Counted from the first letter of the stretch, positions 1,105 through 44,625 are shown. The stretch: DNA of 64,000 nucleotides from Candidatus Parcubacteria bacterium (GCA_023396915.1 JAEWUV010000001.1:21206-85205); one strand, 5' to 3'. Made by a program: numbers and translations. Notes: generated from the letters alone by a model not told the origin.

Positions 1105-1157
1105 CTGCTCCCTTTTTTAAGGGGAGCTGTCAAACGAAGTGAGACTGAGAGGTTTTT
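1105..1157. repeat. Composite GC-hairpin element, copy A: ctgctcccttttttaaggggagctgtc...gactgagaggttttt. On the minus strand it reads as a hairpin plus U-run, a possible terminator of the 95-aa gene.
   Basis: Same 5' half as the 7021-7077 copy. On the minus strand it reads gacagCTCCCCttaaaaaaGGGAGcagtcttttttttt. Further CCTCC...GGAGG and ccgggtaaaccgg hairpins lie at 1047-1082. Confidence 0.55.
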
Positions 1158-1164
1158 ACTTCAA

Positions 1165-1452
1165 TTAATACTTACTCAATTCTATCAACAAATCTTTATT
1201 ATCATTTCCTGCCGCTTCTACCCAAAAATGATGATTACAGTTCTCGCAATTATAAAAAATTCTAAATTTTCCATTTCGATATTCACTTCTGATCGGCCTC
1301 ATTAATCCTTTGCACATACTCGCCCTATCTCCTGGTATTTCTTCATCCACATGCTTTCCCCAAAGACACTTCGGACAATGATCAGTTGTCCCATTACCTA
1401 TCACTTTCTCCTCACACACTTCACAAACAAAATCTTCCACCACTTTTTTCAT
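1165..1452 (-). CDS. Small Cys-rich zinc-ribbon protein (RNHCP-like; CxxC x4).
   Basis: 95 aa with the pairs CEVC, CPKC, C...C and CENC. Resembles RNHCP-domain proteins. Confidence 0.45.
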   Translation of the reverse strand: MKKVVEDFVCEVCEEKVIGNGTTDHCPKCLWGKHVDEEIPGDRASMCKGLMRPIRSEYRNGKFRIFYNCENCNHHFWVEAAGNDNKDLLIELSKY

Positions 1453-1545
1453 ACCAAAATTATATCTTAAAATTTAAGTCTAAAACCACATTTTTATTTT
1501 TGACGAAGATATTTATTTTAAAAAATTCCATTTTTCACTTATAAA

Positions 1546-1626
1546 AATTCGAAGCTATAATTTTTCAACGAATTTCAACACGCCAGTATTGACTGAGGTG
1601 AAAAATTGATAGCAAGAATTTTAAGT
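1546..1626. repeat. R1 repeat copy 1 (~85 bp: aattcgaa..taatttttYRacgaatttcaacRcg.cagYattgactgagg..aaaaattc...agaattt).
   Basis: One of five copies of an ~85-bp family. It lies 94-174 nt upstream of the minus-strand 95-aa gene start. Confidence 0.75.
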
Positions 1627-1654
1627 AAAAAAAATAATAAATTTATTTTTAAAA

Positions 1655-4618
1655 TCATTTCCCCAACACCACTCCCATCTTCACATCCTCATCCAGTTTC
1701 AAATTAAACAACACCTTCCCCCCCACAATACTTGCTGTCGGTTCAACTTGTAATGGTTGCCAACTCTCGGGATATGATATCAGACTCACCAAACTCGTTT
1801 CTCCAGTCCCTGGCTGTTTTTGAATATACTTCATATAAGTAAACTCCTTCCCCGCACCAAAATCAAAATTACTATTGTATTTCACTTCTAAAATTCTTTT
1901 CTTCAAAACCGGTACTGTCATCAAAAACCCTACCTCTTTTTTCCCATCAACCTCCTTAATATTTATTTCGCTATTAACATAAACTTTTTTAACTGAAGTA
2001 TCATATCCATCAGCCACACTAATTTGACTTAATTCCACCTCTTTTGGCAAATAAATTCTCACATAATTCTTATAATCTCCTCCTGGCCAATTATCATTTT
2101 TAGCTGTATTTTCATAAGTCACCCGAATTGTTCTGTTTAAACTCGACTGAGTAATTTCGGTTACTTCTTCAATCCCCTTTTGAATAAAATAATTTGCCTT
2201 ATTTACACCTAAATTTGCTTCAACTAAATACCAAAAATCAGGGACACAATTTTCCCGAGCACATTTTCCATTATAAATTTTCCCATCCCATCCCAAATCA
2301 TTAATTTTCTTGGCCAAACCACTATTATTAACCGCTATCTGAATCTCATTTTTTTGAAGCAAGTCCAACATCGAATCAACCAATAACCCCATTTTTTCTA
2401 TATTTAAATTTTTAATTTCCTCAAACATCTGAGCCCCTAGCCCTCCCAAGAAACTCGCCTTTTGCACCGACCCTGGAAAAAATTTAGTCTCAGCATAAAA
2501 CTCTGCCTGTTCATAAAGATTGTCAGCCGATATTTTTTCATCAAAATCAGGTACGTGAACTTCCCCTATTACCCCCAACATCGACTTAGCCACCGCCAAA
2601 TCAATCCCTATAATTCCATCAACCTTCTGTCCTGTTTCTTTTTCCAAAAACCACTGAATGTCAGCCCCTGTCTTCACAAAATCCGCCTTCCAGTTAGCAT
2701 CTCTCATATACCAATTTGCCTCATTTAAATGACTTTTAATTTCCCAAGGAGGTTCTACATGACCCTCCAATTGACCATCTGCTTCATAAACATCTTTAAT
2801 TTTAAACTCTGTCAATTTTCCACCCTTAAAAGTTATCAACCCATAACTACCAATAAACCCTCCTGTCGGCCTCAACTCCGACTCGTTTTGAAATAAAATC
2901 ATATATTTTCTTTCCTTACCGTCTACCCCCAAAAATTCTGGCAATAAATTAACTGTCTCTTTCCCCAAAGTAATCTTCACCCTAGTCTCATCCAAAACTT
3001 TTTCACCTTTCTGCAAAGACGACCTCCAACCAGCCGGCAACCAACTATAATCCCCTGATAATCTCGCTTGTAATAAACCAATATTATTTTCTATGTCCCC
3101 AATTCCTGTTTTTAGTATATCCAATTCCGTTGTCCAGTCTATCTGATTTCCCTTAAAAATAGCATTATTAATTTCTTCTGCCGCTTTAACTGTTGTTGGT
3201 AAACTTTTTTCTAAAATCAAAAAATCCATCAAAACTTTTAACCCACTTTGATAATTTCTCCCTAAAACAAAACTATTTAAACCCAATTCGCTTATTCTAG
3301 TATCAATCTCCTCTAATCCTTTAAGTCTTTTATCTGCCAAAATCTCAACCTGATTATATTTTTTATCCTTTATCAATTCCGGTATTTCTTTAACACTCCT
3401 CATAGCTCTATTTGTCACCCAACCCCATCTCATTGGTTCAAACAACAAAACTATTAAAAAACACACTACTATCACCCACCAATATCTCCACCCTTTCCAC
3501 CTTTTTTGTTTCTTTACCTTTTTCTCATTCTTTGTCTCACCAAAGATTTCAGCGACAGCGGCCTCCTCACTTTCCTCTTCAATATAATCTTTTTCCTTTG
3601 TCTCCTTTGTCTCCTTTTTCCCTATCAACCTTGGTAAATCAAAATCGTCACTTTTTTCCTCATAAACTACCATTTTTGGTTCTACCTTCTCCTTTTCTTC
3701 GATTTTTTCCTTTGTCTCACCAAAACTTTCAACGAAAGTGGGTTTTTCCTCTACCATCTCATTTTCCTCAACTAAAATATCAAATAATTTTTCATGTGTA
3801 TCCTTTTTTATTTTTTCTTCCATTTTTTTATCCTGAGCTTGTCGAAGGACACTTGCTGTTTTTCGTCTATTCTCTTCATCCATTAAAGAAAAAAAATACT
3901 GCAAAGTTCCATCAATTCCTTTATTAAAATCCATTTCTGCTTTCCAACGTAATTGTCTTTCACTTTCATCAGCTAATTTTTCATTCCCTTGATTAATTTC
4001 TTGATTAACTTCCATCACTTTAAATCTCGTCATTTTTGCCTTATCCATCAAAACCTTAGCTAGTTGTTCAAAGGTTATCTCTTTGCCTAAAAGTAAAAAA
4101 TATTCATTAGCCGTCCCCGACAAAAAACAAGCTCTTAAAATAGCTTCCACTAAATCACTTACAGCCAATAATCTAATTGTTTTACCGGCTTCAGGTAGCT
4201 CTAAATTCTTATTTCGCACCGCCTCTTTTATAACCTTAGACAAAAAATTATTTTCACCCATTCTTTCTCCATAAACACCCAAAGCCTCTACAATTCGCCA
4301 ATCTCTATCCAAAGTAGTTGCTTCCCGACTCAAATAACTTTTTCTCGTTTCATTGTCCACTGAAACCAAAACCAGTTTCTCTCCTTTAATTTTCCCCCAA
4401 TCGTTTTTATCGCCATAGAAATCAAAAACATAATCAAATTCCCCCTCAACTTCATCCAAATTCATTGCCCATTCAAAATTTTTTAAATCAGACAATCCAT
4501 TTATCATCTCTCCCACCCCAACCACATGAATATCTTTTTCTACCAATTCTTCCGCCAATTTTTTTGCCACAAAATGATCAATTCCCAAAATTAATGCTGT
4601 TGGAACCCCATGACTCAT
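1655..4618 (-). CDS. Large membrane-anchored protein with an N-terminal Rossmann/epimerase-like domain, an E/K-rich low-complexity linker, one TM segment and a C-terminal DUF4012-like domain.
   Basis: N-terminus ALILGIDHFVAKKLAEELVEKDIHVVGVG is a Rossmann-like motif. TM segment at WVIVVCFLIVLLF. C-terminal region contains LRPTGGFIGSYGLITF, characteristic of DUF4012. Two FGETK(E/N)(K/E)K repeats sit in the linker. Confidence 0.55.
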   Translation of the reverse strand: MSHGVPTALILGIDHFVAKKLAEELVEKDIHVVGVGEMINGLSDLKNFEWAMNLDEVEGEFDYVFDFYGDKNDWGKIKGEKLVLVSVDNETRKSYLSREATTLDRDWRIVEALGVYGERMGENNFLSKVIKEAVRNKNLELPEAGKTIRLLAVSDLVEAILRACFLSGTANEYFLLLGKEITFEQLAKVLMDKAKMTRFKVMEVNQEINQGNEKLADESERQLRWKAEMDFNKGIDGTLQYFFSLMDEENRRKTASVLRQAQDKKMEEKIKKDTHEKLFDILVEENEMVEEKPTFVESFGETKEKIEEKEKVEPKMVVYEEKSDDFDLPRLIGKKETKETKEKDYIEEESEEAAVAEIFGETKNEKKVKKQKRWKGWRYWWVIVVCFLIVLLFEPMRWGWVTNRAMRSVKEIPELIKDKKYNQVEILADKRLKGLEEIDTRISELGLNSFVLGRNYQSGLKVLMDFLILEKSLPTTVKAAEEINNAIFKGNQIDWTTELDILKTGIGDIENNIGLLQARLSGDYSWLPAGWRSSLQKGEKVLDETRVKITLGKETVNLLPEFLGVDGKERKYMILFQNESELRPTGGFIGSYGLITFKGGKLTEFKIKDVYEADGQLEGHVEPPWEIKSHLNEANWYMRDANWKADFVKTGADIQWFLEKETGQKVDGIIGIDLAVAKSMLGVIGEVHVPDFDEKISADNLYEQAEFYAETKFFPGSVQKASFLGGLGAQMFEEIKNLNIEKMGLLVDSMLDLLQKNEIQIAVNNSGLAKKINDLGWDGKIYNGKCARENCVPDFWYLVEANLGVNKANYFIQKGIEEVTEITQSSLNRTIRVTYENTAKNDNWPGGDYKNYVRIYLPKEVELSQISVADGYDTSVKKVYVNSEINIKEVDGKKEVGFLMTVPVLKKRILEVKYNSNFDFGAGKEFTYMKYIQKQPGTGETSLVSLISYPESWQPLQVEPTASIVGGKVLFNLKLDEDVKMGVVLGK

Positions 4619-4942
4619 ATCAATATTTTAACCTGTTTTTACTCCTTACTACCAACCAATAACTAATAACTAAACAATACGGTAATATTTCGGTTTATTT
4701 GCGGTTATTAACTATTAAAAATGTATGAACAGCCATGAGAGGGAAGTATCAGAACGTGAAAAAACGTCATAACGTCAATATGTGTATCTGTATTTACAAA
4801 AAATTAAATTCCAAGCTAAAAATCTCAAAAACAAACAGTCTAATAATCAAAATTTACGTTCGAACCTGATTCCAAAGTTGTCAAAACAAAATCATATTTT
4901 GTACATATTCCAAAGCAAAAACAACATCAATAATTTTATATT

Positions 4943-5030
4943 TAAATTCGAAACTATAATTTTTTGACGAATTTCAACGCGACAGCATTGACTGAGGCAA
5001 AAAATTCGTAGTGAGAATTTAAAAAAACAA
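4943..5030. repeat. R1 repeat copy 2.
   Basis: aaattcgaaactataattttttgacgaatttcaacgcgacagcattgactgaggcaaaaaattcgtagtgagaattt. Followed by the shared tail aaaaaaacaaaattgttatcaggccaaaaaat. Confidence 0.75.
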
Positions 5031-5066: not shown

Positions 5067-6284
5067 CTACTTTCTCTTTACCAACATCCCTGTCATCAAC
5101 ACTACCGCTATCAATTCTGTCAAAACCGTTATCCAAGCCGCTCCATTAATTCCAAAAGAGGGGATTAATAATAAGTTCCCCCCAATATTTACCACCAAAG
5201 AAACTAGACCTACCAACAAAACCTGTTTTTGTTTTCCTAAAGCAATCAAAGTAAAACCCACTAAATGCCCCAAATAAGCAAATATCATCGCTACCAACAA
5301 AATTCTCAAAACCAATACTGATTTTTCAAATCCATTTCCAGACAATACCCCAATAATCCACGGCGCCAAAAAATAAACCACCCCAGACACCACTATTGCT
5401 CCTAGAAACATCAAAACCCCGGTTTGCCAAAAAAGTCTCTTTCTGTCGTTTTGCTTATTCGACAGCATTGGAAATACACTGTTAATCAAATAATATGCTG
5501 GCTGAACCAAGTTCCCATAAATTTTGTACGCCAAACCATAAAAAGCCAAATCTCTTACCCCGATCAACTGTTTAATCAAAATCGAATCTACCGCCCTGTC
5601 GTAACCAGAAAACAAAATCATATACACCCCCATCGGCCACGACTGTTTCAAAAAATTTACCCAAAAAGTTTTATTAGGTCTAACTAGTTTTAACCTACCC
5701 AAAAGTTTACCTGTTAAACCCAAACCAACCCCCAAGCTAATAATCCGGGCTATCAAATAAACCCCAAAAACTCCAATTAAATTAACTTGGGCTTGCCAAC
5801 CGAATAACCAAACCACAAATATTAATGGGAATAAAATATCTATCCATACTTTTAACTCCATTCTCATTTCTGTTTGAAAAATTATTTCCAAACTTCCAGC
5901 CACAGCCGTAAACCCAACCATCAACAAACCCATTAACGCCTCTATTTCTATCCCATCAAAACCACTCCACAGTAAAATTACTCCCAATCCTACCAAAAAC
6001 ATTAGTAGGGAAGCAAACAACCTAAACCAAGCCACCTGAATATAAATTTCTTTTCTTTTTTCTTCGCTTTCTTTTGCTGCCTCCCTAACCCCCATCACTT
6101 TAGTTCCAAAATCAGCTGCCGAATCCAACAGTAGCCACATTGAACCAATCAACATATAATTTCCATAAACTTCCACCCCCAATTTTCTGGTCAAAATCGC
6201 TGTTGTTACCAAACTCAAACCCACAGTAATACATTTCCCCAACACTTGTACCAAGGTGTTCCAAATCGGTTTCTTCATCAACAT
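5067..6284 (-). CDS. Polysaccharide biosynthesis protein / oligosaccharide flippase (Wzx-like, MOP superfamily).
   Basis: Polytopic membrane protein. N-terminus LGKCITVGLSLVTTAILTRKLGVEVYGNYMLIGSMWLLLDSAADFG is typical of Wzx/PST-family flippases. Confidence 0.6.
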   Translation of the reverse strand: MLMKKPIWNTLVQVLGKCITVGLSLVTTAILTRKLGVEVYGNYMLIGSMWLLLDSAADFGTKVMGVREAAKESEEKRKEIYIQVAWFRLFASLLMFLVGLGVILLWSGFDGIEIEALMGLLMVGFTAVAGSLEIIFQTEMRMELKVWIDILFPLIFVVWLFGWQAQVNLIGVFGVYLIARIISLGVGLGLTGKLLGRLKLVRPNKTFWVNFLKQSWPMGVYMILFSGYDRAVDSILIKQLIGVRDLAFYGLAYKIYGNLVQPAYYLINSVFPMLSNKQNDRKRLFWQTGVLMFLGAIVVSGVVYFLAPWIIGVLSGNGFEKSVLVLRILLVAMIFAYLGHLVGFTLIALGKQKQVLLVGLVSLVVNIGGNLLLIPSFGINGAAWITVLTELIAVVLMTGMLVKRK

Positions 6285-6312
6285 AAATCTATTTTATCCT
6301 AAAATTTTTATT

Positions 6313-6418: not shown

Positions 6419-7690
6419 TTAAACCAGTGCTAATACCAAAGACAACAGCCACATGTTCTGGGGTAGGGTAAACCAATAATGATCTACCATCCCACTCATA
6501 AAAATTACCCCCAATACCACCCAACTCCATTTACCCAAGTCTCCCCATTTAATCTTTTTAGCCAATAACAAAATTGTTCCCATTAATCCCAAAATTCCTA
6601 CCTCTGACACCAAAAGCAAAAATATATTATGTACCGGTTGTAACCAAAAAGTATGGTTATTTTTTAAAACATTAGGCAAATTAGCCAAATAATTTCCCAG
6701 CCCTACTCCTACCCAAGGTGATTGTCGAATCATTTCTATTGCCGCTAAATTTAATTGACCTCTTTTGATCATTCCATTCTCATCCCACCCACCAAAAAAA
6801 TTACCCAAAGGATAATTAAAATCAACCAATTTTAATAAAAACAAAATTAAAATTAATCCCAATACTACAAATTTAATTTTATTTCTGATTTTCCAATCAT
6901 TTTGCCAAAACCAAAAACACATTACTCCCAAAGTTAAAAACCAAATTGTTCTACTTCCAGTCAAAAATATTCCCATCAATCCCAACCAAAATACCCCCCA
7001 CCATTTAATTTTTTCTAAGACTGCTCCCTTTTTTAAGGGGAGCTGTCCCGATTTATCGGGACTGAGAGGTTTGTTCCTTATCCACCACACCAACCCCACT
7101 AACAAAAAACCAGCCAAACTATTCGGGTGAGAAAAAGTTCCATAAGCCCTTACTAAACCTGTATTAACCACTGACATTTGAGCAATTCCTATTGTATTAA
7201 AATCAAATCTTCTTTCACCCAAAAACCACCACAAACCATTCAAACTTCCACCTTTAGATATTTGTCCCAATGCTAAAAGTGACTCAAGTATTATCCAATA
7301 GGGAATAACTTTAATCATAATATCTCCAACAATTCTCTTATTTTTTACTACCCAAAACCAAAAATAACCCAATTCCACCACTCTCAACCACTTATAAACC
7401 GCCACCCATTTATTAATCGACACTAAAATATTTATCCCCACAAAAACTAATCCCAATAAACACCAAAAACTAACCTCCCATTTCCTCTTCTTACTTTCTG
7501 CCAACAAATTAGTTATTAACCAAAGTACAAAGACTAAATCTACTAAATAAAAAGTCGGTGAAAAATAATCAATCCTTATTCCCAACACTGTCGACCAATC
7601 AAACCAAAAATGTTTTCCCAATTGTGTTGGAATTAACAAAATCAACCAAAACAACAAAATTTTTGTCACCTTACCCCAAAATCCTTTCAC
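6419..7690 (-). CDS. O-antigen ligase/polymerase-like (Wzy_C family) membrane protein carrying an in-frame hairpin-repeat insertion.
   Basis: C-terminal motif PVHNIFLLLVSEVGILGLMG (H-N...E.G..G) is typical of the O-antigen ligase family. Polytopic. Residues RNKPLSPDKSGQLPLKKGAV are encoded by repeat copy B at 7021-7077. Confidence 0.6.
   Translation of the reverse strand: MKGFWGKVTKILLFWLILLIPTQLGKHFWFDWSTVLGIRIDYFSPTFYLVDLVFVLWLITNLLAESKKRKWEVSFWCLLGLVFVGINILVSINKWVAVYKWLRVVELGYFWFWVVKNKRIVGDIMIKVIPYWIILESLLALGQISKGGSLNGLWWFLGERRFDFNTIGIAQMSVVNTGLVRAYGTFSHPNSLAGFLLVGLVWWIRNKPLSPDKSGQLPLKKGAVLEKIKWWGVFWLGLMGIFLTGSRTIWFLTLGVMCFWFWQNDWKIRNKIKFVVLGLILILFLLKLVDFNYPLGNFFGGWDENGMIKRGQLNLAAIEMIRQSPWVGVGLGNYLANLPNVLKNNHTFWLQPVHNIFLLLVSEVGILGLMGTILLLAKKIKWGDLGKWSWVVLGVIFMSGMVDHYWFTLPQNMWLLSLVLALV
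7021..7077. repeat. Composite GC-hairpin element, copy B (ctgctcccttttttaaggggagctGTCCCGATttaTCGGGACtgagaggtttgttcc), in frame inside the ligase-like CDS.
   Basis: First 27 nt are identical to copy A at 1105. The second hairpin CCCGAT-tta-ATCGGG is shared with the copies at 25641 and 19314. Confidence 0.7.
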
Positions 7691-8313: not shown

Positions 8314-8354
8314 AGCCGCTATTTTAGCATAAAAATTTCCCGATAAAATAATAA

Positions 8355-8440: not shown

Positions 8441-8445
8441 TAGAA

Positions 8446-19285: not shown

Positions 19286-19313
19286 ATTTAATTCTACCTT
19301 AATCTATTTTTTA

Positions 19314-19365
19314 AGCCCTCCCTTTTTCAAGGGAGGGTGCCCGATAGGGCGGGTGGGTTTAATTC
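19314..19365. repeat. Composite GC-hairpin element, copy D (agCCCTCCCtttttcaaGGGAGGGtgCCCGatagggCGGGtgggtttaattc), immediately upstream of the 5'-3' exonuclease start.
   Basis: Shares hairpin-1 architecture and the gggtgggtttaatt tail with copy C at 25641. Confidence 0.65.
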
Positions 19366-24796: not shown

Positions 24797-25639
24797 ATGC
24801 CTGAGCTTCCCGAAGTCGAAACAGTCCGTCTCTTTTTAGACAGCCATATTTTAAATAAAACCATTTCTAATATCGAGATTTTAAACACTAAGTCTTTTGT
24901 CGGCGATCCAAAATTAGCTCTTAACCAAAAAATAATTTCTACATCCCGTCTAGGTAAACAACTTTCAATTCATCTAAAAAATGGTCTAATTCTTCTTTTC
25001 CATCTCAAAATGACCGGTCAGATTATTATTGGCGATTCAGTTTTAGGTCATCCTACCCCAAAAGAAAACAAGTCTCATCTACCCAATAAATCTACTCGTC
25101 TCATTTTCACCTTTTCCGATAGCACTAAACTATTTTTCAACGATCAACGCAAGTTCGGTTGGGTTAAATTATTTACTCAAACTGAATTAAAAAATTTTCA
25201 GAAAAATGTTGGTGTCGATATTTTGGATTCGGCATTTACTAATAATTATTTTTACAACCAAATCCAAAAAACCTCCCGAGCTATCAAATTAGTTTTACTT
25301 GATCAATCAAAATTTGCCGGCATTGGTAATATCTATGACAATGATGCTTTGTTTTTAAGCCATATTCACCCCGAAACTTCAGCCAATAAATTAACTAAAA
25401 ATCAATCTCAAAAACTTCATCAAAATTTAGTCGATTTAATGAAAGAATCACTGTTTCATGGTGGTTCTACCGCCAAAGATAATAAATATATTCACCCCGA
25501 CGGTTCTGTTGGTCAACATCAATATTTCTTTCGGGTTTATCAAAGAGCAGGGGAACCTTGTCTTGTCTGTAAAACGCCTATTAAACGAATAAAAATCGGT
25601 GGTCGGGGTACTTTCTTTTGTCCCCATTGTCAGAATTAA
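24797..25639 (+). CDS. mutM: Formamidopyrimidine-DNA glycosylase (Fpg/MutM).
   Basis: MPELPEVETVR N-terminus (catalytic Pro2, Glu3) and C-terminal zinc finger CLVCKTPIKRIKIGGRGTFFCPHCQ. Confidence 0.9.
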   Translation: MPELPEVETVRLFLDSHILNKTISNIEILNTKSFVGDPKLALNQKIISTSRLGKQLSIHLKNGLILLFHLKMTGQIIIGDSVLGHPTPKENKSHLPNKSTRLIFTFSDSTKLFFNDQRKFGWVKLFTQTELKNFQKNVGVDILDSAFTNNYFYNQIQKTSRAIKLVLLDQSKFAGIGNIYDNDALFLSHIHPETSANKLTKNQSQKLHQNLVDLMKESLFHGGSTAKDNKYIHPDGSVGQHQYFFRVYQRAGEPCLVCKTPIKRIKIGGRGTFFCPHCQN

Positions 25640-25640
25640 A

Positions 25641-25693
25641 AGCCTCCTTTTTTAAGGGAGGTCCCGATTTATCGGGGGTGGGTTTAATTTTCC
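25641..25693. repeat. Composite GC-hairpin element, copy C (agCCTCCttttttaaGGGAGGTCCCGATttATCGGGggtgggtttaattttcc), between mutM and the iscRS fusion.
   Basis: Two consecutive hairpins followed by the gggtgggtttaatt tail. May act as the mutM terminator and/or the isc leader. Confidence 0.65.
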
Positions 25694-29448: not shown

Positions 29449-29502
29449 AACCCCATTCCCCGTCTTGTCAAAGAAGGGGTTAGGGGAAGATTGAATTAAA
29501 TT

Positions 29503-33748: not shown

Positions 33749-35076
33749 TTTCCCAAAAAATTAAAATTCTCTTTTTCTCCTTAGCCTTTATCATTTTATT
33801 TCTTTTGCCTGCCAAAACTTTTGATTCAATTGATGGGTTAATGTATTTAAACACAGCCAAAAGTATTGTTTATCAGGGTAATTTTTCAATCAATGAAAAA
33901 ATACCCAGTTTAATCAAGGGAGTTACCGGAGAATTCTATTCTGTTGGTGGTCTAGGTTGGACTATTTGTTTAGTAATTCCAATTTGGATTAATAAAATTG
34001 CTGGCGGAAATATTGAAAATATTCAACTTGTTGCCAATTTTACTAATCCGTTTTTATCTTTTTGTTTACTTATAGTTTTATATAAACTCTATTCACTTAT
34101 TTCTAAAAATCAAAAAATTGCTTTAATTGTCGCCGCTATCACTGTTTTTTCCACTAACTTATTACCCTTATCCAAGCATTCATTTGCCCACATGTTTTCA
34201 ATTTTAACCATAATTTCCAGTATTTATTTTGGGTTGAAATGCTCTTCACTTAAGAAAACTAAAAATCTGATTCTATCAGGAATCTTTTATGGATTATTTA
34301 TTCTTAGTTACAATTATAGTTTTGTTTTGGTTAGTTTTGTCTTATTTTTAGTCTTAATTTTCAAAAAAGTTCTTAATAAAAAAATTATCACTTACTGGTT
34401 TATTGGAGTAATCCCGTTTATCTCTCTCTTCTTCTTTTACAATTACTTCCGGTTCGGAAATATTTTTGAAACTGGTTATCTTGCCGGCAGCAGTACCAGT
34501 ACAGAAACCAATCTTAGAAATAGTTTTATCGACGGATTTTGGGGGTTACTCTTAAGTCCTGGTAAAAGTATTTGGGTTTATAGCCCTATTCTGATTTATA
34601 GTTTTTATTTAAGTCTTAAAAATATCAAAAAAAACTGGGTTTATGCCCTGTTTGTAAGTTTCCTCACCTTAAACACTATTTTCTATGCCAGACTGGCTTT
34701 TTGGAGTGGAGAACTAAGTTATGGCCCTCGATATTTTGCCATACTTATTCCATTTGGTGGTTTAGTTTTGGTTCAGCATTGGCACCAAATTAATAAAAAA
34801 ATCTTGACTGGTTTAGTGCTACTTGGGCTATGGGTTCAGTTTGTTGGAGTATCAATCCCTTATACAAAACAGTACCAATGGTACGATATGGAATTTATGT
34901 GTGTTGGCAGTCAAGGCCTAAGTCGTCAAGGCGAGTTTGATTATTGGTCTATTGGCCAATTTATTCCTCGATATTCTCCTCCATATAGGCTTAAAAAAGA
35001 ATTATTTCAAAGATGGAATAATCTAATTTTTAAACGAAATGGGGATCTTCCTGATTTTTGGTGGGTAAAAGACTAA
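33736..35076 (+). CDS. Polytopic membrane protein, GT39/ArnT-like glycosyltransferase family (tentative).
   Basis: More than 10 TM helices. Gene context with the other envelope glycosylation genes. Confidence 0.4.
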   Translation: MGKVISQKIKILFFSLAFIILFLLPAKTFDSIDGLMYLNTAKSIVYQGNFSINEKIPSLIKGVTGEFYSVGGLGWTICLVIPIWINKIAGGNIENIQLVANFTNPFLSFCLLIVLYKLYSLISKNQKIALIVAAITVFSTNLLPLSKHSFAHMFSILTIISSIYFGLKCSSLKKTKNLILSGIFYGLFILSYNYSFVLVSFVLFLVLIFKKVLNKKIITYWFIGVIPFISLFFFYNYFRFGNIFETGYLAGSSTSTETNLRNSFIDGFWGLLLSPGKSIWVYSPILIYSFYLSLKNIKKNWVYALFVSFLTLNTIFYARLAFWSGELSYGPRYFAILIPFGGLVLVQHWHQINKKILTGLVLLGLWVQFVGVSIPYTKQYQWYDMEFMCVGSQGLSRQGEFDYWSIGQFIPRYSPPYRLKKELFQRWNNLIFKRNGDLPDFWWVKD

Positions 35077-35684
35077 CTCTTAAACTTTTCTCCCCACGCC
35101 TCTACCAACGAATAACAACAACCGCAATAATTTTGCTTATAGAACCCGCTGGTTTTTAAATCTTTTACAACTTTTTTCGGTATCAAAAATTTTATTCCAT
35201 ATTCTTTTTCTAGCGTCTTTCCGATTTCCTCAATTTTATTTTTATTCTGATAATGACTGGTTAATAGGGTAGTTGAAACCGCCTCAAAATTATTTTTAGA
35301 TGCATACTCAAACGTCTTTCTTAATCTCAACTCCCAACACCCATCGCATCTGGTTTTACTTTTTAATGGCTCCATTTCATCAAGGGGAGCTGTCCGCAGG
35401 ACTGAGGGGTTTTGTTTTAAAGTCTCCCTTTCTTCAAAGGGAGAAGCGGCGTAGCCGAGAGGGATTTTAGAAAACCATTCTCTTGGGCTCCAATCAGCCA
35501 CCACCAATTTAATTTTATTCTCTTCCGCTATTTTTTGAATCGCTTTTAATCTGGATAAATATTCTGCTCTCGGATGAATATTTGGATTATAAAAATAAGC
35601 CGTTACTTCAATGTCTTCATTCTTCAATGACGCCACCATTTTTACCAAACAATCCGCACAACAAGCATGAATTAGAACCTTCAT
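35073..35684 (-). CDS. queH: Epoxyqueuosine reductase QueH (DUF208) containing an in-frame insertion of about 34 codons derived from tandem hairpin repeats.
   Basis: HACCADC, YFYNPNIHPRAEYLSRL, RCDGCWELRLRKT, TTLLTSHYQNK are QueH hallmarks. The insert is GYAASPFEERETLKQNPSVLRTAPLDEMEPLKSK. Confidence 0.75.
   Translation of the reverse strand: MKVLIHACCADCLVKMVASLKNEDIEVTAYFYNPNIHPRAEYLSRLKAIQKIAEENKIKLVVADWSPREWFSKIPLGYAASPFEERETLKQNPSVLRTAPLDEMEPLKSKTRCDGCWELRLRKTFEYASKNNFEAVSTTLLTSHYQNKNKIEEIGKTLEKEYGIKFLIPKKVVKDLKTSGFYKQNYCGCCYSLVEAWGEKFKS
35369..35470. repeat. Two tandem copies of the composite GC-hairpin element (copies E1 and E2) inside queH, in frame.
   Basis: E1 is gGCTCCatttcatcaaGGGGAGCtGTCCgcaGGACtgaggggtttt. 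E2 is gtCTCCCtttcttcaaaGGGAGaagCGGCgtaGCCGagagggatttt. Confidence 0.7.
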
Positions 35685-38779: not shown

Positions 38780-38820
38780 TTTTTCAGCTTCTTTTCAGTT
38801 TCCGGACTATAATAATACTT

Positions 38821-39489
38821 ATGAAAATACTTGTTATCGAAGACGAACATTTAATCGCCACTTCACTCAAAAAAGGTCTAGAGCAAGAGCACTATACTGT
38901 TGATGTCGCTTTTGATGGTATCGAAGGTTATGATTTGGCCTCAGCCGAAAATTATGATCTTATTCTTCTTGACCTCATGCTTCCGGGTATGGACGGACTT
39001 TCTATTTGTAAAAAATTACGAGAAGACAAAAATAATACCCCAATTTTAATGCTAACTGCCAAAAGCCAATTAGAAGATAAAGTTAATGGTCTAAATTGTG
39101 GTGCTGACGATTATCTAACCAAACCTTTTGCTTTCGAAGAATTATTAGCCAGAATTCGTGCCCTTAGTCGTCGTCCTCAACAAAGTACGGGTAAAGCACT
39201 AATCGTAGGCGACTTAACCCTTGATACTACTTCTTATCAAGTTAAACGAGCTAACAAAGAAATTCGTTTATCTAGCAAAGAATATTCCCTTCTCGAGTGT
39301 CTCATGCGTCATTCCGGCCAAATTTTAAACAAAGATCAACTTATTCAATATGTCTGGAGTTATGAATCTGACATCCTCCCCAACACTGTCGAAGTTTATA
39401 TTAGAAATCTCCGTCAAAAAATCGACAAAAATTTCAAGAAAAAGTTAATCCAAACCATTCGTGGTTTCGGTTACAAATTAAGTGAATAA
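38821..39489 (+). CDS. OmpR-family two-component response regulator.
   Basis: Receiver DLILLDLMLPGMDG and a winged-helix C-terminus. Confidence 0.9.
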   Translation: MKILVIEDEHLIATSLKKGLEQEHYTVDVAFDGIEGYDLASAENYDLILLDLMLPGMDGLSICKKLREDKNNTPILMLTAKSQLEDKVNGLNCGADDYLTKPFAFEELLARIRALSRRPQQSTGKALIVGDLTLDTTSYQVKRANKEIRLSSKEYSLLECLMRHSGQILNKDQLIQYVWSYESDILPNTVEVYIRNLRQKIDKNFKKKLIQTIRGFGYKLSE

Positions 39490-39523
39490 TATAAATACTA
39501 AAAAATTTTTTGAATTAATATTT

Positions 39524-39570
39524 CTCCCTTTCATCAAGGGGAGATATCAATTTATTGACAGAGGGGTTTT
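39524..39570. repeat. Composite GC-hairpin element, copy F (CTCCCtttcatcaaGGGGAGatATCAATttaTTGAcagaggggtttt), ending 3 nt before the kinase ATG.
   Basis: Hairpin1 + hairpin2 + AGAGGGG SD-like tail, then tttaa and ATG. Confidence 0.65.
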
Positions 39571-39572
39571 AA

Positions 39573-40589
39573 ATGTTTAAACAAGCCCGTCTTAAATTAA
39601 CTGCCTGGTACCTTTTAATCATCACTGTCATTAGTTTATTTTTTAGTTTTTTAATTTATAATCTTGCCGACAAAGAAATTAATCGTTTTGCCGCTTCTCA
39701 ACGAAATCGAATTGAGCGTCGTTTGGTTATCCTTAACCCGGAATTACCGCCCCAACCAGTTACTATCGTCGATCAAGATCTCATTAACGAAAGTCGAGAG
39801 CGCCTTAAATTAAGCCTTTTAATAATTAATGGAATCATTATATTTTTATCCGGCAGTCTTTCTTATTTTTTGGCAGGTCTTACTCTTAAACCAATCCAAG
39901 AAATGTCCGAAGACCAAAAGCGTTTTATTTCCGATGCTAGTCATGAATTAAAAACTCCGATTACCGCCTTAAAATCTCTTTTTGAAGTTACTCTTCGTGA
40001 TAAAAAACTAAGTCTAAAAGAAGCCCAAAATGCTCTTAAATTAGGTATTGACCAAAGTAATCGTCTTACCAATCTCTCCAATTCTCTTTTAGAGCTTAGC
40101 CGTCTTGAAATAAATCATATTGCCAGTCAATTTTCACTTCTTGATCTAAAGAAAATAATTTCTGAATCCATCTCTCAAATCAAACCACAAGCTGACAAAA
40201 AAAAGATAAAAATTATTTCTCGCCTTACCTCTTCAAAAGTCAAAGGAGATCAAAACAGACTTGTTGAACTTTTTACTATCTTTCTTGATAACGCCATCAA
40301 ATATAGTCCCCAAAAAACTACCATAAAAATCATTTCTGAAAACAAAAACAAACAAGTATCGATAAAAATTATTGATCACGGTATAGGTATTGACCAAAAA
40401 GATTTAAATAAAATTTTTGATCGTTTTTATCAAATAGACAATTCTCGAACTAAAGTAAATAATTCTGGTTATGGCCTAGGACTTGCCATTGCCAAAAAAA
40501 TTATCAGCTCACACCACGGTTCCATCAAAGTTTTTAGTAAACTCAACCAAGGAAGTAAATTTATTATTACCTTGCCTCTTTTCAGTTAG
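39573..40589 (+). CDS. Sensor histidine kinase.
   Basis: 2 TM helices, H-box FISDASHELKTPITAL, G-box GYGLGLAIAKKII. Confidence 0.9.
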   Translation: MFKQARLKLTAWYLLIITVISLFFSFLIYNLADKEINRFAASQRNRIERRLVILNPELPPQPVTIVDQDLINESRERLKLSLLIINGIIIFLSGSLSYFLAGLTLKPIQEMSEDQKRFISDASHELKTPITALKSLFEVTLRDKKLSLKEAQNALKLGIDQSNRLTNLSNSLLELSRLEINHIASQFSLLDLKKIISESISQIKPQADKKKIKIISRLTSSKVKGDQNRLVELFTIFLDNAIKYSPQKTTIKIISENKNKQVSIKIIDHGIGIDQKDLNKIFDRFYQIDNSRTKVNNSGYGLGLAIAKKIISSHHGSIKVFSKLNQGSKFIITLPLFS

Positions 40590-40619
40590 TCTTCAGTTTA
40601 GAATCCTAAACTCCCGATT

Positions 40620-42005
40620 ATGAAAGCTATCAAAACTTTTTTTGCCACTTTTTTGGCAAAATTTACCTCTTTACCAAAGTTTTTAAGAATTTTAATTATC
40701 ATTGTTTTGGCCGGCGGAATCGCTTTTTTTACCTACTCTAAAATTCATAATTCAGGTAAATCTCAAACCAGTTACAAAACTACTACTGTTGAAAAAGGCA
40801 CCTTAATTACCTCAATTTCTGCCACTGGTACCATCACTTCCAGCAACAAAACCGCCATTACTACCGGAGCTACCGGTACTATCAAAAAAGTTTATGTTAA
40901 AAATGGCGACACTGTCACCAAAGGTCAAAAAATTGCCGATATTACTCTAGATGATGATGGTATTTATAATCAAACCACTGCTTGGGCCAACTACACTTCC
41001 ATGCTTGAAAAACAGCAACAAGCCATTGCTGATCAGACCAGTGCTGATATTCAAATGTGGAATGATCGTCAAAGCCTTTTAGATGCCGAAAAAGAATATA
41101 ACAAGATGATTGCCGGCGCTTGGAACGATAAAACCAAAGCCGAATACACTTATAACGAAAAGGCCATTGTCACCAAGACTTTTGAATTAGCCAAAGAAAA
41201 ATTTACCACCGATGAAACTACTTTTAATAACTATAACGCCGTTATTGCCAAAGCCAAACAACAAACTAGTAATGCCTATAATAACTACAAAAAAGTTTCT
41301 TCGGTTATTTATGCCCCTGTATCTGGTGTTATTAGCAATTTAAGTCTCGCCGAAGGTGTCATTATCAGTAATTCTTCCACCTCTATTACTGTTTCTACTG
41401 GCACCAATAGCAGTGAAAATTCATCTTCTGTTACCTCTCATACTGTTGGTAGTATCACTAATCCAAAAGGTCAATATCAATCAACCTTAAGCCTGACCGA
41501 ATCGGAAATTGTCAAAATCAAATCTGGTCAAAAAGTTACTATGACTTTAGATGCCTTTTCGGATGCTACCTTTACTGGTGAAGTTTTATCAGTTGATGTC
41601 GCTGGGTCCACCAATTCCGGGGTTACTTCTTACTCGGTTGTGGTTTTACTTGACGATACCGACAAAGAAATTTATACCAATATGGCCGTAACTGCCACTA
41701 TTATTATTAACTCTCAATCAGACGTTTTATTAATTCCATCCACTGCCATTGATACTGACGCCAATGGAAATTCTACAGTCCAGTTAATCAAAGACGGAGT
41801 AACTTCTAGCGTTATTATTACTGTTGGCTCTACTAATGACAGTCAAACCGTAGTTACTCAAGGCCTAAGTGAAGGCGACACTATTATTGCTTCATCCGTT
41901 ACCAATCAGGCCAAATCCAACAATAATACTTCCTCTGACTTCAGTTCTAGCAACAACAGAAGTGGTGCTGGATTTATTATGGGTGGTGCTCCTTTGGGAA
42001 GATAA
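40620..42005 (+). CDS. HlyD/MacA-family periplasmic adaptor (membrane fusion protein).
   Basis: N-terminal TM helix, lipoyl-like KGQKIADI hairpin, beta-barrel C-terminus. Sits upstream of the MacB-type ABC pair. Confidence 0.7.
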   Translation: MKAIKTFFATFLAKFTSLPKFLRILIIIVLAGGIAFFTYSKIHNSGKSQTSYKTTTVEKGTLITSISATGTITSSNKTAITTGATGTIKKVYVKNGDTVTKGQKIADITLDDDGIYNQTTAWANYTSMLEKQQQAIADQTSADIQMWNDRQSLLDAEKEYNKMIAGAWNDKTKAEYTYNEKAIVTKTFELAKEKFTTDETTFNNYNAVIAKAKQQTSNAYNNYKKVSSVIYAPVSGVISNLSLAEGVIISNSSTSITVSTGTNSSENSSSVTSHTVGSITNPKGQYQSTLSLTESEIVKIKSGQKVTMTLDAFSDATFTGEVLSVDVAGSTNSGVTSYSVVVLLDDTDKEIYTNMAVTATIIINSQSDVLLIPSTAIDTDANGNSTVQLIKDGVTSSVIITVGSTNDSQTVVTQGLSEGDTIIASSVTNQAKSNNNTSSDFSSSNNRSGAGFIMGGAPLGR

Positions 42006-42007
42006 TT

Positions 42008-42748
42008 ATGTCCAAAACCAAGGCAATTATTGTTGTTAAAAATCTTTCCAAGATTTATCAAACCGACATGCTAAAAACGGTTGCTGTCGATAATGTTTCC
42101 TTCCAAATTAACCAAGGTGAATTTGTGGCCATTATGGGTCCATCCGGTTCTGGTAAATCAACCTTAATGCATATTTTAGGTGCTTTAGACAAACCCACCT
42201 CTGGTCAATATATTCTTGACGGCAAAGATGTTAGTCATCTTTCCGAAGATGACTTAGCTGACATCAGAAACCGTAAAATTGGTTTTATCTTTCAGGCATT
42301 TAATCTTTTACCTCGTACTTCAACTCTAAAAAATGTTATGTTGCCCATGTCTTATGCCGGCATTCCCAAAGAAGAACGTGAAGCCACTGCCACTAAATTT
42401 TTAAAAATGGTTGGGCTAGGGGATCGCCTCAATCACACCAGTAATCAAATTTCGGGCGGTCAACAACAACGGGTCGCTATTGCCCGATCTTTAGTTTTAA
42501 ATCCAGCCCTAATCTTAGCCGACGAACCCACCGGTAATATCGCCACTTCTCAGGCCGACGAAATTATGGAAATTTTTGAAAAGTTAAACGACGACGGCCA
42601 CACCATTGTCATGATTACTCACGAACCCGATATTGCCGAGCACGCCAAAAGAATTATTTTTATTCGAGACGGCAAAATTGTCAAAGACAGTATCAACCAC
42701 CAACGTCGTGGTTCCTCAATCAAAAAGGAGGTTGCCAAAAATGACTGA
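42008..42748 (+). CDS. ABC transporter ATP-binding protein (MacB/LolD-like).
   Basis: Walker A GPSGSGKST, signature LSGGQQQRVAIARSL, Walker B ILADEPTGN. Confidence 0.95.
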   Translation: MSKTKAIIVVKNLSKIYQTDMLKTVAVDNVSFQINQGEFVAIMGPSGSGKSTLMHILGALDKPTSGQYILDGKDVSHLSEDDLADIRNRKIGFIFQAFNLLPRTSTLKNVMLPMSYAGIPKEEREATATKFLKMVGLGDRLNHTSNQISGGQQQRVAIARSLVLNPALILADEPTGNIATSQADEIMEIFEKLNDDGHTIVMITHEPDIAEHAKRIIFIRDGKIVKDSINHQRRGSSIKKEVAKND

Positions 42749-43964
42749 ATTTTGGGAATTACTCAAAGAAAGTTTTTTAAGTCTTAAACTCAACAAAATG
42801 AGAACTGGCCTAGCTATGCTGGGCATTATTATTGGTATTGGATCAGTCATTGGTCTTATTTCTATTGGTGAATCATCAAAAAAATCCATCACTTCTCAAA
42901 TCGAGGCCTTGGGTTCTAATCTAATTACTGTTTCGCCTGGTTCTCAGCGTTCCGGTATGGTTCGAAGTTCTAGTACTGTCAAAACTCTCACTCTAGCCGA
43001 TGCTCAAGCCTTAGAAAAGGAAAATTTATCAGCCATTTCTTTAGTTTCTCCAGAATATTCAAATCGTTACCAAGTTGTTGCCGGTGACGCTAATACCAAT
43101 ACCACCATTTATGGGGTTACCTCCGCCTATACCACTGTTCATAATCTCAAGGTCAGCAGTGGTCGTTTTATTACTGACAGTGACAATAATTCCAATTCTC
43201 ATGTAGCTGTTATTGGGCCCGATACCGTTTCCGAACTTTATGGTGATGCCAATTACAATTGTCTAGGGCAAACCATTCGTATTAATGGTCAAAATTTTAC
43301 CATCATTGGTATTACTGTCGCCAAAGGAACCACTGGTATGAGCAGTACCGACAGTGCTATTTATATTCCGCTTTCAACGGGGCTAAAACAGCTTTTTGGA
43401 GTTAATTATTTAACTTCTTTATCCATCCAGTCTGCTAGTAGTGATGTTATTATTCAGGCCCAAAATCAAGTTGGTTATTTTCTTCTTGCTCGTCACCAAA
43501 TTAGTGATCCATCCAGTGCCGATTTTTATATTCGATCTTCTGCCGAAATGTTAGAAACTGTCAATAGTGTTACCGGCACTTTTACCTCTCTTTTATCCGG
43601 CGTTGCCGCTATATCACTAATTGTCGGCGGTATCGGTATTATGAATATTATGTTAGTGACCGTCACTGAACGTACCCGCGAAATTGGTCTTCGCAAAGCT
43701 CTTGGTGCCAAGAAAAAAACCATTATCACTCAATTTTTAACCGAGTCAGTTATCCTTACATTTGGCGGAGGCGTCATTGGGGTAGTCTTAGGAATTGCCC
43801 TATCTTATGGTTATTCTATTTACAATTCGTCCATTTTCACTATTTCTATCAACTCTGTTTTATTAGCCTTTTTTGTCTCTGTCGGTATTGGAATTCTTTT
43901 TGGTTGGTATCCTGCCAAAAAAGCTTCATCTCTTCAACCCATCGAAGCCCTAAGATACGAGTAA
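42741..43964 (+). CDS. ABC transporter permease (FtsX/MacB-type). The start at 42741 overlaps the previous stop (ATGACTGA); the longer track ORF start was rejected.
   Basis: MTEFWELLKESFLSLKLNKMRTGLAMLGIIIGIGSV N-terminus and four FtsX-type TM helices. Confidence 0.88.
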   Translation: MTEFWELLKESFLSLKLNKMRTGLAMLGIIIGIGSVIGLISIGESSKKSITSQIEALGSNLITVSPGSQRSGMVRSSSTVKTLTLADAQALEKENLSAISLVSPEYSNRYQVVAGDANTNTTIYGVTSAYTTVHNLKVSSGRFITDSDNNSNSHVAVIGPDTVSELYGDANYNCLGQTIRINGQNFTIIGITVAKGTTGMSSTDSAIYIPLSTGLKQLFGVNYLTSLSIQSASSDVIIQAQNQVGYFLLARHQISDPSSADFYIRSSAEMLETVNSVTGTFTSLLSGVAAISLIVGGIGIMNIMLVTVTERTREIGLRKALGAKKKTIITQFLTESVILTFGGGVIGVVLGIALSYGYSIYNSSIFTISINSVLLAFFVSVGIGILFGWYPAKKASSLQPIEALRYE

Positions 43965-44079
43965 TTTTTTTAGTTTAAATAGGTCGAATTTTGAAGCATA
44001 GCATCAAAATTTGCCTATTTACACAATCCCGCTACTGCGGGACAAAACACATTATTAATTAATTATTAATTAAAAAAAT

Positions 44080-44565
44080 ATGACAGAAAAAAATAAAAAA
44101 TATATTCTTCCCGTCTCTTTGTCCGTCGTCTTTTTAGTTGTTGGTTTTGGTCTAGGCATTCTTTATCAAAACAATCATATTAAATCTACTTTCACCTCTC
44201 GCATGGGTCAATTTCAAACCGGTGAAGGCTTAGGTAATCGCACCGGCACTGTTCGTAACAATACTGGCACCAGAGGTACTGGTATGGGTCTTCGGGATGG
44301 TTCTGGTAGTGGTGCCACTTTTGGTGAAGTTACCAAATTGGACGACTCTTCTTTAACCATCAAAACCGCCGATGGTAGTTCCAAAATTATTTTACTTTCC
44401 GATAGCACTGTTTTTAACCAATCTATTACCGCCGCCAAAACTGACTTAAAAGTTGGCGATCAAGTCCGAGTTGATGGTACTACTGACAGCAATACCGGCA
44501 GTGTTAATGGCGAAACTATTGAAATAAATCCCGCCAGAATCGGTCAAGATACCCCTCAACAATAA
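44080..44565 (+). CDS. Hypothetical membrane-anchored Gly/Thr-rich protein.
   Basis: N-terminal TM, then GNRTGTVRNNTGTRGTGMGLRDGSGSG. Confidence 0.45.
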   Translation: MTEKNKKYILPVSLSVVFLVVGFGLGILYQNNHIKSTFTSRMGQFQTGEGLGNRTGTVRNNTGTRGTGMGLRDGSGSGATFGEVTKLDDSSLTIKTADGSSKIILLSDSTVFNQSITAAKTDLKVGDQVRVDGTTDSNTGSVNGETIEINPARIGQDTPQQ

Positions 44566-44581
44566 TAAATTCTTAAAATAT

Positions 44582-44625
44582 TTCCCCTCCTTTCCTCAAA
44601 GGAGGGGAATAAGTGGTAGATTTTG
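44582..44625. repeat. GC-hairpin element copy G (CCCCTCCtttcctcaaaGGAGGGGaataagtggtagatttt). Likely a terminator for the upstream + gene.
   Basis: 7-bp GC stem with a U-rich loop, followed by a T-rich tract. Confidence 0.55.

Follow-up and report, generated by a model that had tools for sequence, protein, structure and literature searches.

Palindromic repeats that colonise housekeeping genes in frame have, to our knowledge, been regarded as nearly exclusive to Rickettsia. The Rickettsia palindromic elements (RPE) are found between genes and often also in frame within unrelated housekeeping genes, adding a peptide segment to a host protein that survives the insertion (PMC10969869). Double-hairpin elements are attributed to the mitochondria of Allomyces (Paquin et al. 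2000, through its citation in PMC7218506). The present analysis concerns a family of GC-rich hairpin repeats in a 64,000-nucleotide stretch of the genome of a Candidatus Parcubacteria bacterium (GCA_023396915.1, JAEWUV010000001.1:21206-85205), the whole of which is referred to below as the window. The named relatives of the epoxyqueuosine reductase (QueH) encoded in the window are Candidatus Shapirobacteria, which belong to the Microgenomates group of the candidate phyla radiation (CPR, or Patescibacteria). A preliminary description, made from the sequence of the window, listed eight copies of a composite hairpin. These copies probably represent a selfish repeat family that resembles RPE and the repetitive extragenic palindromes (REP) of other bacteria and that includes in-frame insertions. 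On this reading the members would be very small (~40-60 nt), non-autonomous, GC-rich hairpin repeats restricted to a Shapirobacteria-type lineage, with an anatomy like that of REP and REPIN sequences and a behaviour like that of RPE.

Direct reading of the sequence at all eight listed coordinates confirmed that they share one architecture. A short A-rich 5′ edge (AAG or AAGACT) is followed by hairpin 1 (CTCCCTTT-loop-AAGGGGAG), by an optional hairpin 2 and by a tail of the form GRKRGGTTT, giving an element length of 39-74 nt (median 52). Hairpin 1 has a full length of 21-25 nt, with a stem of 9 bp (YCTCCCTTT / AARGGGAGR) and a loop of 3-5, and it is present in the minimum-free-energy fold of every listed copy; hairpin 2 is present in most. 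The sequence of hairpin 2 is highly variable (GTCCCGA/TCGGGAC, GCCCCGC/GCGGGGC, GTTTTGA/TCAAAAC, GTCAC/GTGAC and others), and it was not found as a free-standing repeat in the window. Units without hairpin 2 generally have T(T)(T)A at the corresponding position, so that hairpin 2 has the look of a second palindrome set into the unit at a TA step. A simple hairpin-1 pattern matched the window 10 times, compared to 0.25 matches expected from shuffled sequences, and a composite pattern matched four times, compared to none.

Because a plain MAFFT alignment set hairpin 1 out of register, the seed of a first covariance model (R1), consisting of seven copies of the window and two from the QueH loop of relatives, was registered by hand and padded with N, and later alignments were model-based. 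With filters off, R1 yielded nine strong matches in the window, among them seven listed copies at E<=2e-7. A second model (R2), built from 99 metagenome copies with no window copy among them, recovered all eight listed copies and a ninth at E<=3e-6. All nine lie in 1-45 kb of the window, and neither model found a copy in 45-64 kb. Compensatory changes are abundant in both helices, as read from alignments that were themselves fitted to the covariance model, a circumstance that qualifies all of the following pairing figures: when 31 matches in the window and in genomes of relatives are aligned, the share of paired stem cells is 94.4%, versus 77.6% with shuffled partners and 45-71% with slid partners, and both sides have changed at 14 of 16 stem pairs; in the alignment of the 99 metagenome copies, 95.9% are paired versus 80.1% when shuffled, and all seven hairpin-2 pairs covary. 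For the two alignments together, the slid controls range over 45-73% and double changes occur at 13-14 of 16 pairs. At pair 10-31 of hairpin 1, U.G occurs in 51 of the 99 copies, where the other strand would have a C.A mismatch; as the U.G pair forms on the sense strand only, the two strands are not equivalent.

The preliminary description missed the fact that three of its eight copies (c2, c5 and c6) lie inside genes, antisense to them, where they keep the reading frame and add 20-35 residues. Copy c2 (7020..7076, + strand) is located within a gene of 423 codons (6419..7690, - strand) for a Wzy_C (O-antigen-ligase-like) membrane protein, encodes RNKPLSPDKSGQLPLKKGAV, and falls in the loop directly upstream of the Wzy_C domain (PF04932, E=5e-15, residues 233-371); the open reading frame (ORF) runs uninterrupted through the element, and an orthologue of c2 occupies the same site in L110 (related loci are designated by L and a number). 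Copies c5 (35366..35416, + strand) and c6 (35420..35471, + strand) form a tandem in frame within queH (35073..35684, - strand; PF02677), where together they encode SKIPLGYAASPFEERETLKQNPSVLRTAPLDEMEP. Among the predicted peptides are QNPSVLRTAPLDEMEPLK for QueH and PLSPDKSGQLPLKK for the Wzy protein.

In QueH, the loop encoded by the elements (about residues 72-108) splits the Pfam match in two, the second stretch aligning amino acids 109-193 with profile positions 81-173. When 30 QueH homologues were aligned, the loop between the invariant residues F71 and R112 was found to contain no module, either one, both, or three; homologues without a module are 167-173 amino acids long, and further variants of the loop exist. 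The corresponding DNA in related genomes consists of units of the family with differing hairpin 2 sequences, of single-hairpin units, or of nothing. An AlphaFold2 model of the protein has a predicted local distance difference test score (pLDDT) below 50 for exactly residues 72-111 and flanks that score up to 94, and this prediction fits an insert that is a tolerated addition to a surface loop.

The same pattern recurs in relatives. MutM is interrupted in frame at one site in L010 and L089, a site that is empty in six orthologues including that of the window, and a glycosyltransferase of family GT4 is interrupted at one common site in L006, L010 and L143 by copies with three different hairpin 2 sequences. 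Further in-frame hosts are TrmD, a TrxB-like reductase, a tRNA nucleotidyltransferase of the PolyA_pol family, an ADP-forming acyl-CoA-synthetase-like protein, a DsbD/HMA membrane protein and another Wzy protein. The insert has Pfam domains across it or on its flanks in at least nine families: QueH, Wzy_C, MutM, TrmD, Pyr_redox_2, PolyA_pol, GT4, CoA-ligase/ATP-grasp and DsbD_2/HMA. When a copy was counted as intragenic if the stop-free frame around it had at least 150 codons and extended for at least 40 codons to either side of the element, 27 of 97 copies in low-GC loci (~28%) qualified, 20 of them antisense and seven sense to the gene. Intragenic copies thus persist where length and frame allow, as additions of 13-35 residues in poorly conserved protein loops.

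Several frames and either orientation are used for the element-encoded segments. A pre-adaptation of the elements to be open in every frame was considered and rejected, as the fraction of open frames was 0.54 in sense and 0.48 in antisense orientation compared to 0.44 for random segments; since the elements are not unusually stop-free, the in-frame copies look like survivors of selection. A search with a 37-amino-acid element peptide against 1.84 billion protein representatives returned one irrelevant repetitive protein, and a protein-level search with a 109-amino-acid concatenation of six modules returned no match. As these peptide searches failed, the breadth of in-frame insertion is shown at the level of DNA.

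The distribution of the family was determined with R1 in a control set of 80 QueH-centred loci from representative genomes of GTDB (1.21 Mb). All 17 matches at E<0.06 are in Shapirobacteria-like loci (L005-L019); the remaining loci, from other CPR lineages and other phyla, contain a single chance-level match (L080, E=0.08). A 25-letter pattern had at least 120 matching stretches in metagenomes and no match in 2.9 million viral contigs; R1, applied to 80 of the matching stretches (482 kb), identified the 99 copies there. Additional copies beyond the window are therefore present in related genomes and in metagenomes, and together with the compensatory changes they support the earlier reading of the elements as dispersed, structured repeats of the REP type or of the MITE type (miniature inverted-repeat transposable elements).

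Comparison of orthologous sites shows that copies have been gained or lost at A/T-rich sites and persist in intergenic spacers. The cleanest filled/empty pair is provided by copy c4 (25639..25689, + strand), between the stop codon of mutM and an iscR-iscS fusion gene: the site is empty in L008, where the flanks are otherwise alignable and the adjoining IscRS protein is 90% identical. The window reads ...GAATTAA[AAGCC...GGGTGGGT]TTAA/TTTTCC and L008 reads ...AAAAATAA/TTTTCC (the slash is an alignment mark), so that the inserted block relative to L008 is 25641-25688 (48 nt), with TTAA on both sides. Copy c7 (39520..39573, + strand) fills the spacer between a response-regulator gene and a histidine-kinase gene; this spacer is 3-5 nt long and empty in L014 and L016, and long and element-free in L005, L006 and L010. 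The long spacer measures ~110 nt in L006 (~5770-5880) and L010 (~4490-4600) and is AT-rich and palindromic (AATTTAAATTTTAAAATTGATTAAAAATTGTAAATTTAAAATT), a filling that may be another kind of small repeat. Copy c3 (19313..19364, + strand) is common to L005 and L006, where it lacks hairpin 2 (GGGAGGGT-A-GGGTGGG, as against GGGAGGGT-GCCCGATAGGGC-GGGTGGG in the window). More filled and empty orthologous sites are found at the 5′ end of the GT4 gene, in the mutM loop and in the QueH loop.

The remaining copies in the window are intergenic. Copy c1 (1104..1159, + strand) lies directly past the stop codon of a gene for an RNHCP-domain protein (1165-1452, - strand; Pfam RNHCP match). Head-to-head with it is the ninth copy, absent from the preliminary list (1032..1085, - strand), which scored 37.5 bits with R1 (E=1e-8) although it was outside the seed, and 44.6 bits with R2 (E=3e-12); its hairpin 2 reads CCGG-GTAAA-CCGG on the + strand. 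Copy c3 occupies the divergent spacer between a gene for a hydrolase of the HAD family (18671-19285, - strand) and a 5′-3′ exonuclease gene (ATG at 19380). The weakest copy is c8 (44582..44627, + strand; 18.8 bits with R1, 26.2 bits and E=3e-6 with R2), located in a convergent spacer and consisting of a 12-bp hairpin 1 and a degenerate tail without hairpin 2. A marginal, degenerate relic of the single-hairpin subtype (CCCCGTCTTGTCAAAGAAGGGGTTAGGGGAAGATTGAA) at 29455..29496 (+ strand), upstream of an ORF at 29503-30036, was matched by R2 with E=0.055 and by R1 with E=0.13 (- strand) and E=2.7 (+ strand); it is similar to copies upstream of mutM in L005 and L010.

A near-constant orientation relative to the chromosome-wide G/C strand asymmetry is a further property of the family that was missed initially. 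The sense strand of the element is on the C-rich chromosome strand in eight of the nine window copies and in 84 of the 97 copies in low-GC loci (87%; median flank skew -0.18), and most copies of the minority orientation are partners in inverted pairs. As the elements may point either way with respect to genes, it is the chromosome strand, not transcription, that the bias follows. The window, with a G+C content of 34%, is strongly asymmetric (13,238 C versus 8,416 G): the GC skew is negative in every 4-kb bin, from -0.08 to -0.48, and does not change sign at the rnpA/dnaA-dnaN locus (~9.4-13 kb), the window containing both rnpA-yidC-jag and dnaA-dnaN. Which strand serves as lagging-strand template may be suggested by this skew. 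Estimates from regions of minus-strand and of plus-strand genes put the strand-wide component of the skew at ~-0.3 and the coding-strand component at ~+0.16. A chromosome-wide single-strand G/C disparity, with which that of the window agrees, has been described in related Microgenomates and tentatively put down to near-unidirectional replication (PMC7143001).

The ends of the elements show a weak C-run/G-run resemblance at most. Inspection of the copy sequences revealed no terminal inverted repeats, the 5′ end (AAGACTTCTCCC) being mismatched with the reverse complement of the 3′ end (AAACCCCTCTGTC). Across 88 copies there was no copy-specific target duplication, the longest common flank string averaging 3.94 versus 4.04 +/- 0.11 for shuffled pairings. 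The same control ruled out a TTTAA-like target duplication, which many flanks had suggested to the eye. The flanks are A/T-rich with no fixed target motif seen beyond that richness, and the 5′ edge AAG or AAGACT is conserved. Most copies are singletons; head-to-head pairs, tandems and nested arrangements occur occasionally.

An alternative explanation, akin to what was first proposed, holds that the elements are cis-regulatory RNA modules, their hairpins acting as terminators, attenuators or transcript stabilisers and their tail as the Shine-Dalgarno (SD) sequence of the downstream gene; it is considered improbable. The copies are not generally situated just before start codons as had been stated: those at 7021, 35369 and 35418 are inside ORFs and those at 1105 and 44582 are at the 3′ ends of genes. 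Of the three said to end 3-30 nt before an ATG, the copies preceding the histidine-kinase gene (39524, 2 nt) and the exonuclease gene (19314, 15 nt) do end close to it, and the copy preceding the iscRS fusion gene (25641) ends ~70 nt away. The tail can be taken as an SD sequence in one copy of nine, c7, which places GAGGGG 6 nt before the ATG of the kinase gene; this placement and the lack of a -10 box at the kinase gene favour a regulatory role, and the tail of c7 is plausibly a one-off exaptation as an SD sequence. A general supply of ribosome-binding sites or leaders does not agree with the gene starts of the window, where a -10 hexamer ends 5-8 nt before the ATG in 25 of 52 genes, often with a TGn extension (e.g. 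TGATAAACT), and an SD-like motif of any kind occurs in six of 52; the position of the -10 box suggests that about half of the window genes have leaderless mRNAs. In the case of c3, which lies in a divergent spacer, an extended -10 box (TGCTAAACT) is found between the element and the exonuclease ATG, the element being upstream of this box. As for terminators, copy c8 on the - strand fits the pattern of a hairpin plus T-run behind an ORF (44676-44969), which favours a regulatory function, but it is the only one of six copies in the scanned interval 25001-45000 to do so; in the others the T-run begins 6-9 nt past the last stem, and there are members of the family inside genes and in the divergent spacer. 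The location of the copies at 25639, 1104 and 44582 directly past gene 3′ ends, the conservation between L005 and L010 of a related subtype upstream of mutM, and the compatibility of the U.G wobble with an RNA fold could likewise be cited for regulatory RNA. Against it, three of nine window copies and ~28% overall are within coding frames in either orientation, and because orientation tracks the chromosome strand rather than transcription, half of the window copies would be transcribed antisense. Regulatory effects, such as might come from the SD-like tail of c7 and the terminator-like hairpin of c8, would be occasional by-products, not the family's raison d'être.

The constancy of orientation could also mean that the elements are fixed polar DNA motifs, comparable to KOPS or Chi and serving replication, segregation or repair, or else sites for nucleoid proteins, with orientation under selection. 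Consistent with such motifs are the 87% of copies that are co-oriented with the G/C asymmetry, the possibly unidirectional or otherwise unusual replication that the G/C disparity of related Microgenomates may reflect (PMC7143001), and the perfect pairing that is kept at orthologous sites though the neighbouring proteins are 65-85% identical. The explanation is nevertheless improbable, as presence or absence varies at orthologous sites, to the point that the QueH loop has from zero to three modules; copies form tandem, nested and head-to-head clusters and are tolerated within unrelated proteins; the sequence of hairpin 2 is very variable; and the spacing is uneven (nine copies in 1-45 kb versus none in 45-64 kb). 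Somewhat less remote, but still not favoured, is the explanation that the elements are selfish and mobile and that the bias arises after insertion, by slippage or deletion of those copies in which replication exposes the more stable strand, insertion itself being due to a DDE-type MITE mechanism, recombination or template switching. The unequal stability that the G.T wobble gives to the hairpins of the two strands would allow this, the minority-orientation copies are mostly in inverted pairs, the flanks are A/T-rich as at many MITE targets, and the TTAA on both sides of c4 is compatible with a short target duplication. A MITE mechanism is opposed by the lack of visible terminal inverted repeats and of a detectable copy-specific duplication across 88 copies; the particular IS200- and RAYT-type queries had no homologue in the window, a negative that covers those queries and no general search for transposases or DDE enzymes.

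For the selfish repeat family as favoured here, movement as single-stranded DNA (ssDNA) would account for the lack of inverted termini and of detectable duplication, the G.T wobble, the strand bias, the head-to-head pairs and the tandems, from which it is inferred. REP/REPIN and IS200/IS605-type elements are moved as ssDNA by Y1 transposases of the HUH class, and the feature set of the family matches theirs. The enzyme in this case might be a Y1 (HUH) transposase of the RAYT (REP-associated tyrosine transposase) or IS200-IS605 type, acting in trans; mobilisation of single strands by such an enzyme is a tentative proposal, somewhat unlikely as it stands. Less likely again is the conjunction of four propositions, namely that the clade's domesticated RAYT-like Y1 protein transposes the elements as ssDNA, that their orientation records one-way replication, that they are a major and ongoing source of loop insertions, and that hairpin 2 nests at TA steps.

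A candidate enzyme exists in the clade. Among element-bearing loci, a tblastn search with approximate IS200 and Escherichia coli RAYT sequences detected a Y1 gene in L126 only, a locus that also carries an element; the ORF (1476-1976, - strand), identified by tblastn and Pfam, encodes a RAYT-like Y1_Tnp protein (PF01797). Close homologues are labelled as Shapirobacteria transposases, and the gene is also present in L205 (10001-10510) and L206-L212. The gene is single-copy in Shapirobacteria and has a conserved neighbourhood (PDDEXK_1 - Y1_Tnp - RNase_H_2 - DinB), with a gene for a PD-(D/E)XK (Cas4-like) nuclease on one side and genes for an RNase_H_2 exonuclease and DinB on the other. It is bracketed by GC hairpins of its own, GGGGTTTCG-GCTAG-CGAAACCCC upstream and GGGCTTCG-CTAGC-CGAAGCCC at the 3′ end of the ORF. 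Single copy number, conserved synteny and flanking hairpins of their own are typical of domesticated RAYTs.

Several observations weigh against a mobile family moved in this manner. The hairpins that flank the RAYT-like gene differ from the double-hairpin family; in one other species, the 133 kb that surround the gene contain no copy of the family according to R1; tblastn with the IS200- and RAYT-type queries found no homologue in the window; and no transposase is tied to the hairpin family. Insertion polymorphism at strain level was not found, as L001-L004, with three other assemblies of the species among them, are 100% identical to the window, and recent mobility is therefore not demonstrated. 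The filled and empty sites were compared across species at 65-90% identity, which leaves the exact ends of the elements ambiguous, and a very short duplication (2-4 nt, or 3 nt or less by the comparison of flank strings) would still be possible, c4 with its TTAA borders being an example. The QueH, GT4 and mutM sites carry differing variants in different species, which could be due to re-insertion at hot spots, to gene conversion, or to long-term selection for a function of the hairpins. Template-switch (quasipalindrome) repair can restore perfect arms, so the covariation is no proof of a selected structure. That the inserted segments are translated is a presumption from the intact reading frames.

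Other features of the window were noted in passing. No tRNA genes were found in it, and Rfam searches of the whole window at gathering thresholds and of 1-10.3 kb at permissive thresholds returned nothing relevant. The -10-like hexamers at gene starts are TATAAT, TAAAAT or TAAACT, often after TGn (examples at 19362-19379, 25740-25758 and 40600-40619), and several related genomes have kept a motif TGATAAACTA-N5-7-ATG upstream of the exonuclease gene and of mutM. The first 10 kb also contain another repeat family, unrelated to the hairpin elements and ~96 nt long, with five copies that are 64-86% identical (1533-1628, 4932-5027, 6302-6397, 8348-8443 and 9950-10045); each precedes a gene on the minus strand (on the rpmH/rnpA side of dnaA, jag and others), and the minus strand of the repeat forms a long AT-rich hairpin (AAATTC...GAATTT) with compensatory changes at eight of 29 pairs among the five copies, and it has no Rfam match. 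A 73-nt direct repeat (TTTTTGCAGGGCGCAGTCTCTGAGTGGATATTACGATGGTTACAAGCCCG..., 92% identical) occurs at 878-950, in the ORF-free first 1.1 kb, and at 7746-7818, between the start of the Wzy gene and the stop codon of jag. In 1-1164, where a copy of this repeat is found along with the two hairpin elements that lie head-to-head, the longest ORF has at most 52 codons; the region may harbour an unannotated RNA gene or be decayed.

The fusion gene downstream of c4 (25759-27282, + strand) encodes a protein of 507 amino acids in which a regulator domain of the Rrf2/IscR type (residues 3-119) is joined to a class-V aminotransferase (IscS/NifS-like, residues 126-489), and the fusion is kept in L008 at 90% identity. 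A small cysteine-rich ORF (28843-28929, + strand; MAASKKCSCGCTSCNCGPKCSCGCNSKK) has a metallothionein-like composition and is followed by a 13-bp GC-rich hairpin (28937-28969) that does not belong to the double-hairpin repeat family. The stretch 44953-51607 has a low G+C content (0.28 at 48-52 kb) and encodes a Bro-N/Fic protein, several unannotated ORFs and an ORF of 1039 amino acids; it may be a mobile or defence island. Hairpin elements are absent from 44953 to the end of the window.

The occurrence of RPE-like behaviour in streamlined CPR genomes, with two-hairpin units of ~50 nt, implies that it originated independently in reduced, AT-rich genomes with scant intergenic space. The repeats account for loops of variable length in QueH, MutM, TrmD and similar cases among CPR proteins, and gene calling, domain annotation and alignment can all be misled by them. 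The strict orientation by strand offers an independent marker for testing the unusual, possibly unidirectional, chromosome replication that has been proposed for Microgenomates, and they are a concrete substrate for probing the role of the clade's single-copy RAYT-like gene. If they are indeed transposed as ssDNA by the RAYT-like Y1 protein, they would constitute an RPE-like system of selfish DNA in genes in ultra-small genomes.

The searchable literature yielded no account of elements of this kind from CPR bacteria, and comparison with described systems reveals partial likenesses. Like RPE, the elements are in frame within unrelated housekeeping genes, preserve the reading frame and have insert-free homologues, and the insert of QueH is at a low-confidence loop; unlike RPE, which are ~100-150 bp long, belong to Rickettsia and encode one conserved peptide per family, they are 40-60 nt long, belong to CPR hosts, are read in several frames and have a free choice of hairpin 2. 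Strong bias towards one chromosome strand is a further feature of the CPR elements as against RPE, and no sequence relationship to RPE families was found. With REP, BIME and REPIN sequences they share short, GC-rich, imperfect palindromes, many copies, a lack of inverted termini and duplications, and some inverted pairs, and as in REP-RAYT systems the clade has a Y1 gene of RAYT type, here single-copy, syntenic and flanked by hairpins that are not of this family; however, REP sequences are extragenic by definition and have a 5′ tetranucleotide of GTAG type, whereas ~28% of the CPR elements are intragenic, the 5′ edge is AAG(ACT) without GTAG, and most copies are singletons.

The elements resemble derivatives of IS200/IS605 (IS608 and ISDra2, as generally known) in their sub-terminal hairpins, in lacking inverted termini and duplication, and in an orientation tied to the replication strand, but they are far smaller, and no TnpA or TnpB remnant, cleavage site or target tetranucleotide was identified. 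MITEs such as Correia/NEMIS, ERIC, RUP and BOX are likewise small, non-autonomous and structured, can be co-transcribed, and sometimes supply promoters, terminators or in-frame fusions; in contrast to the CPR elements, classical MITEs have inverted termini and a defined duplication (e.g. TA), and are usually longer than 100 bp. The double-hairpin elements of Allomyces and the GC clusters of yeast mitochondria are also tiny GC-rich units in an AT-rich genome, optional between relatives and located in spacers and occasionally in coding regions; they belong to another domain of life and another type of genome, and the likeness is pure analogy, with no shared sequence or known common mechanism. 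The family departs from each of the known kinds: from REP in not being extragenic and in lacking GTAG, from classical MITEs in having neither inverted termini nor duplication, and from RPE in its size, host and peptides. It is closest to RPE in behaviour and to REP/REPIN in anatomy, with the mitochondrial double-hairpin elements as an analogy.

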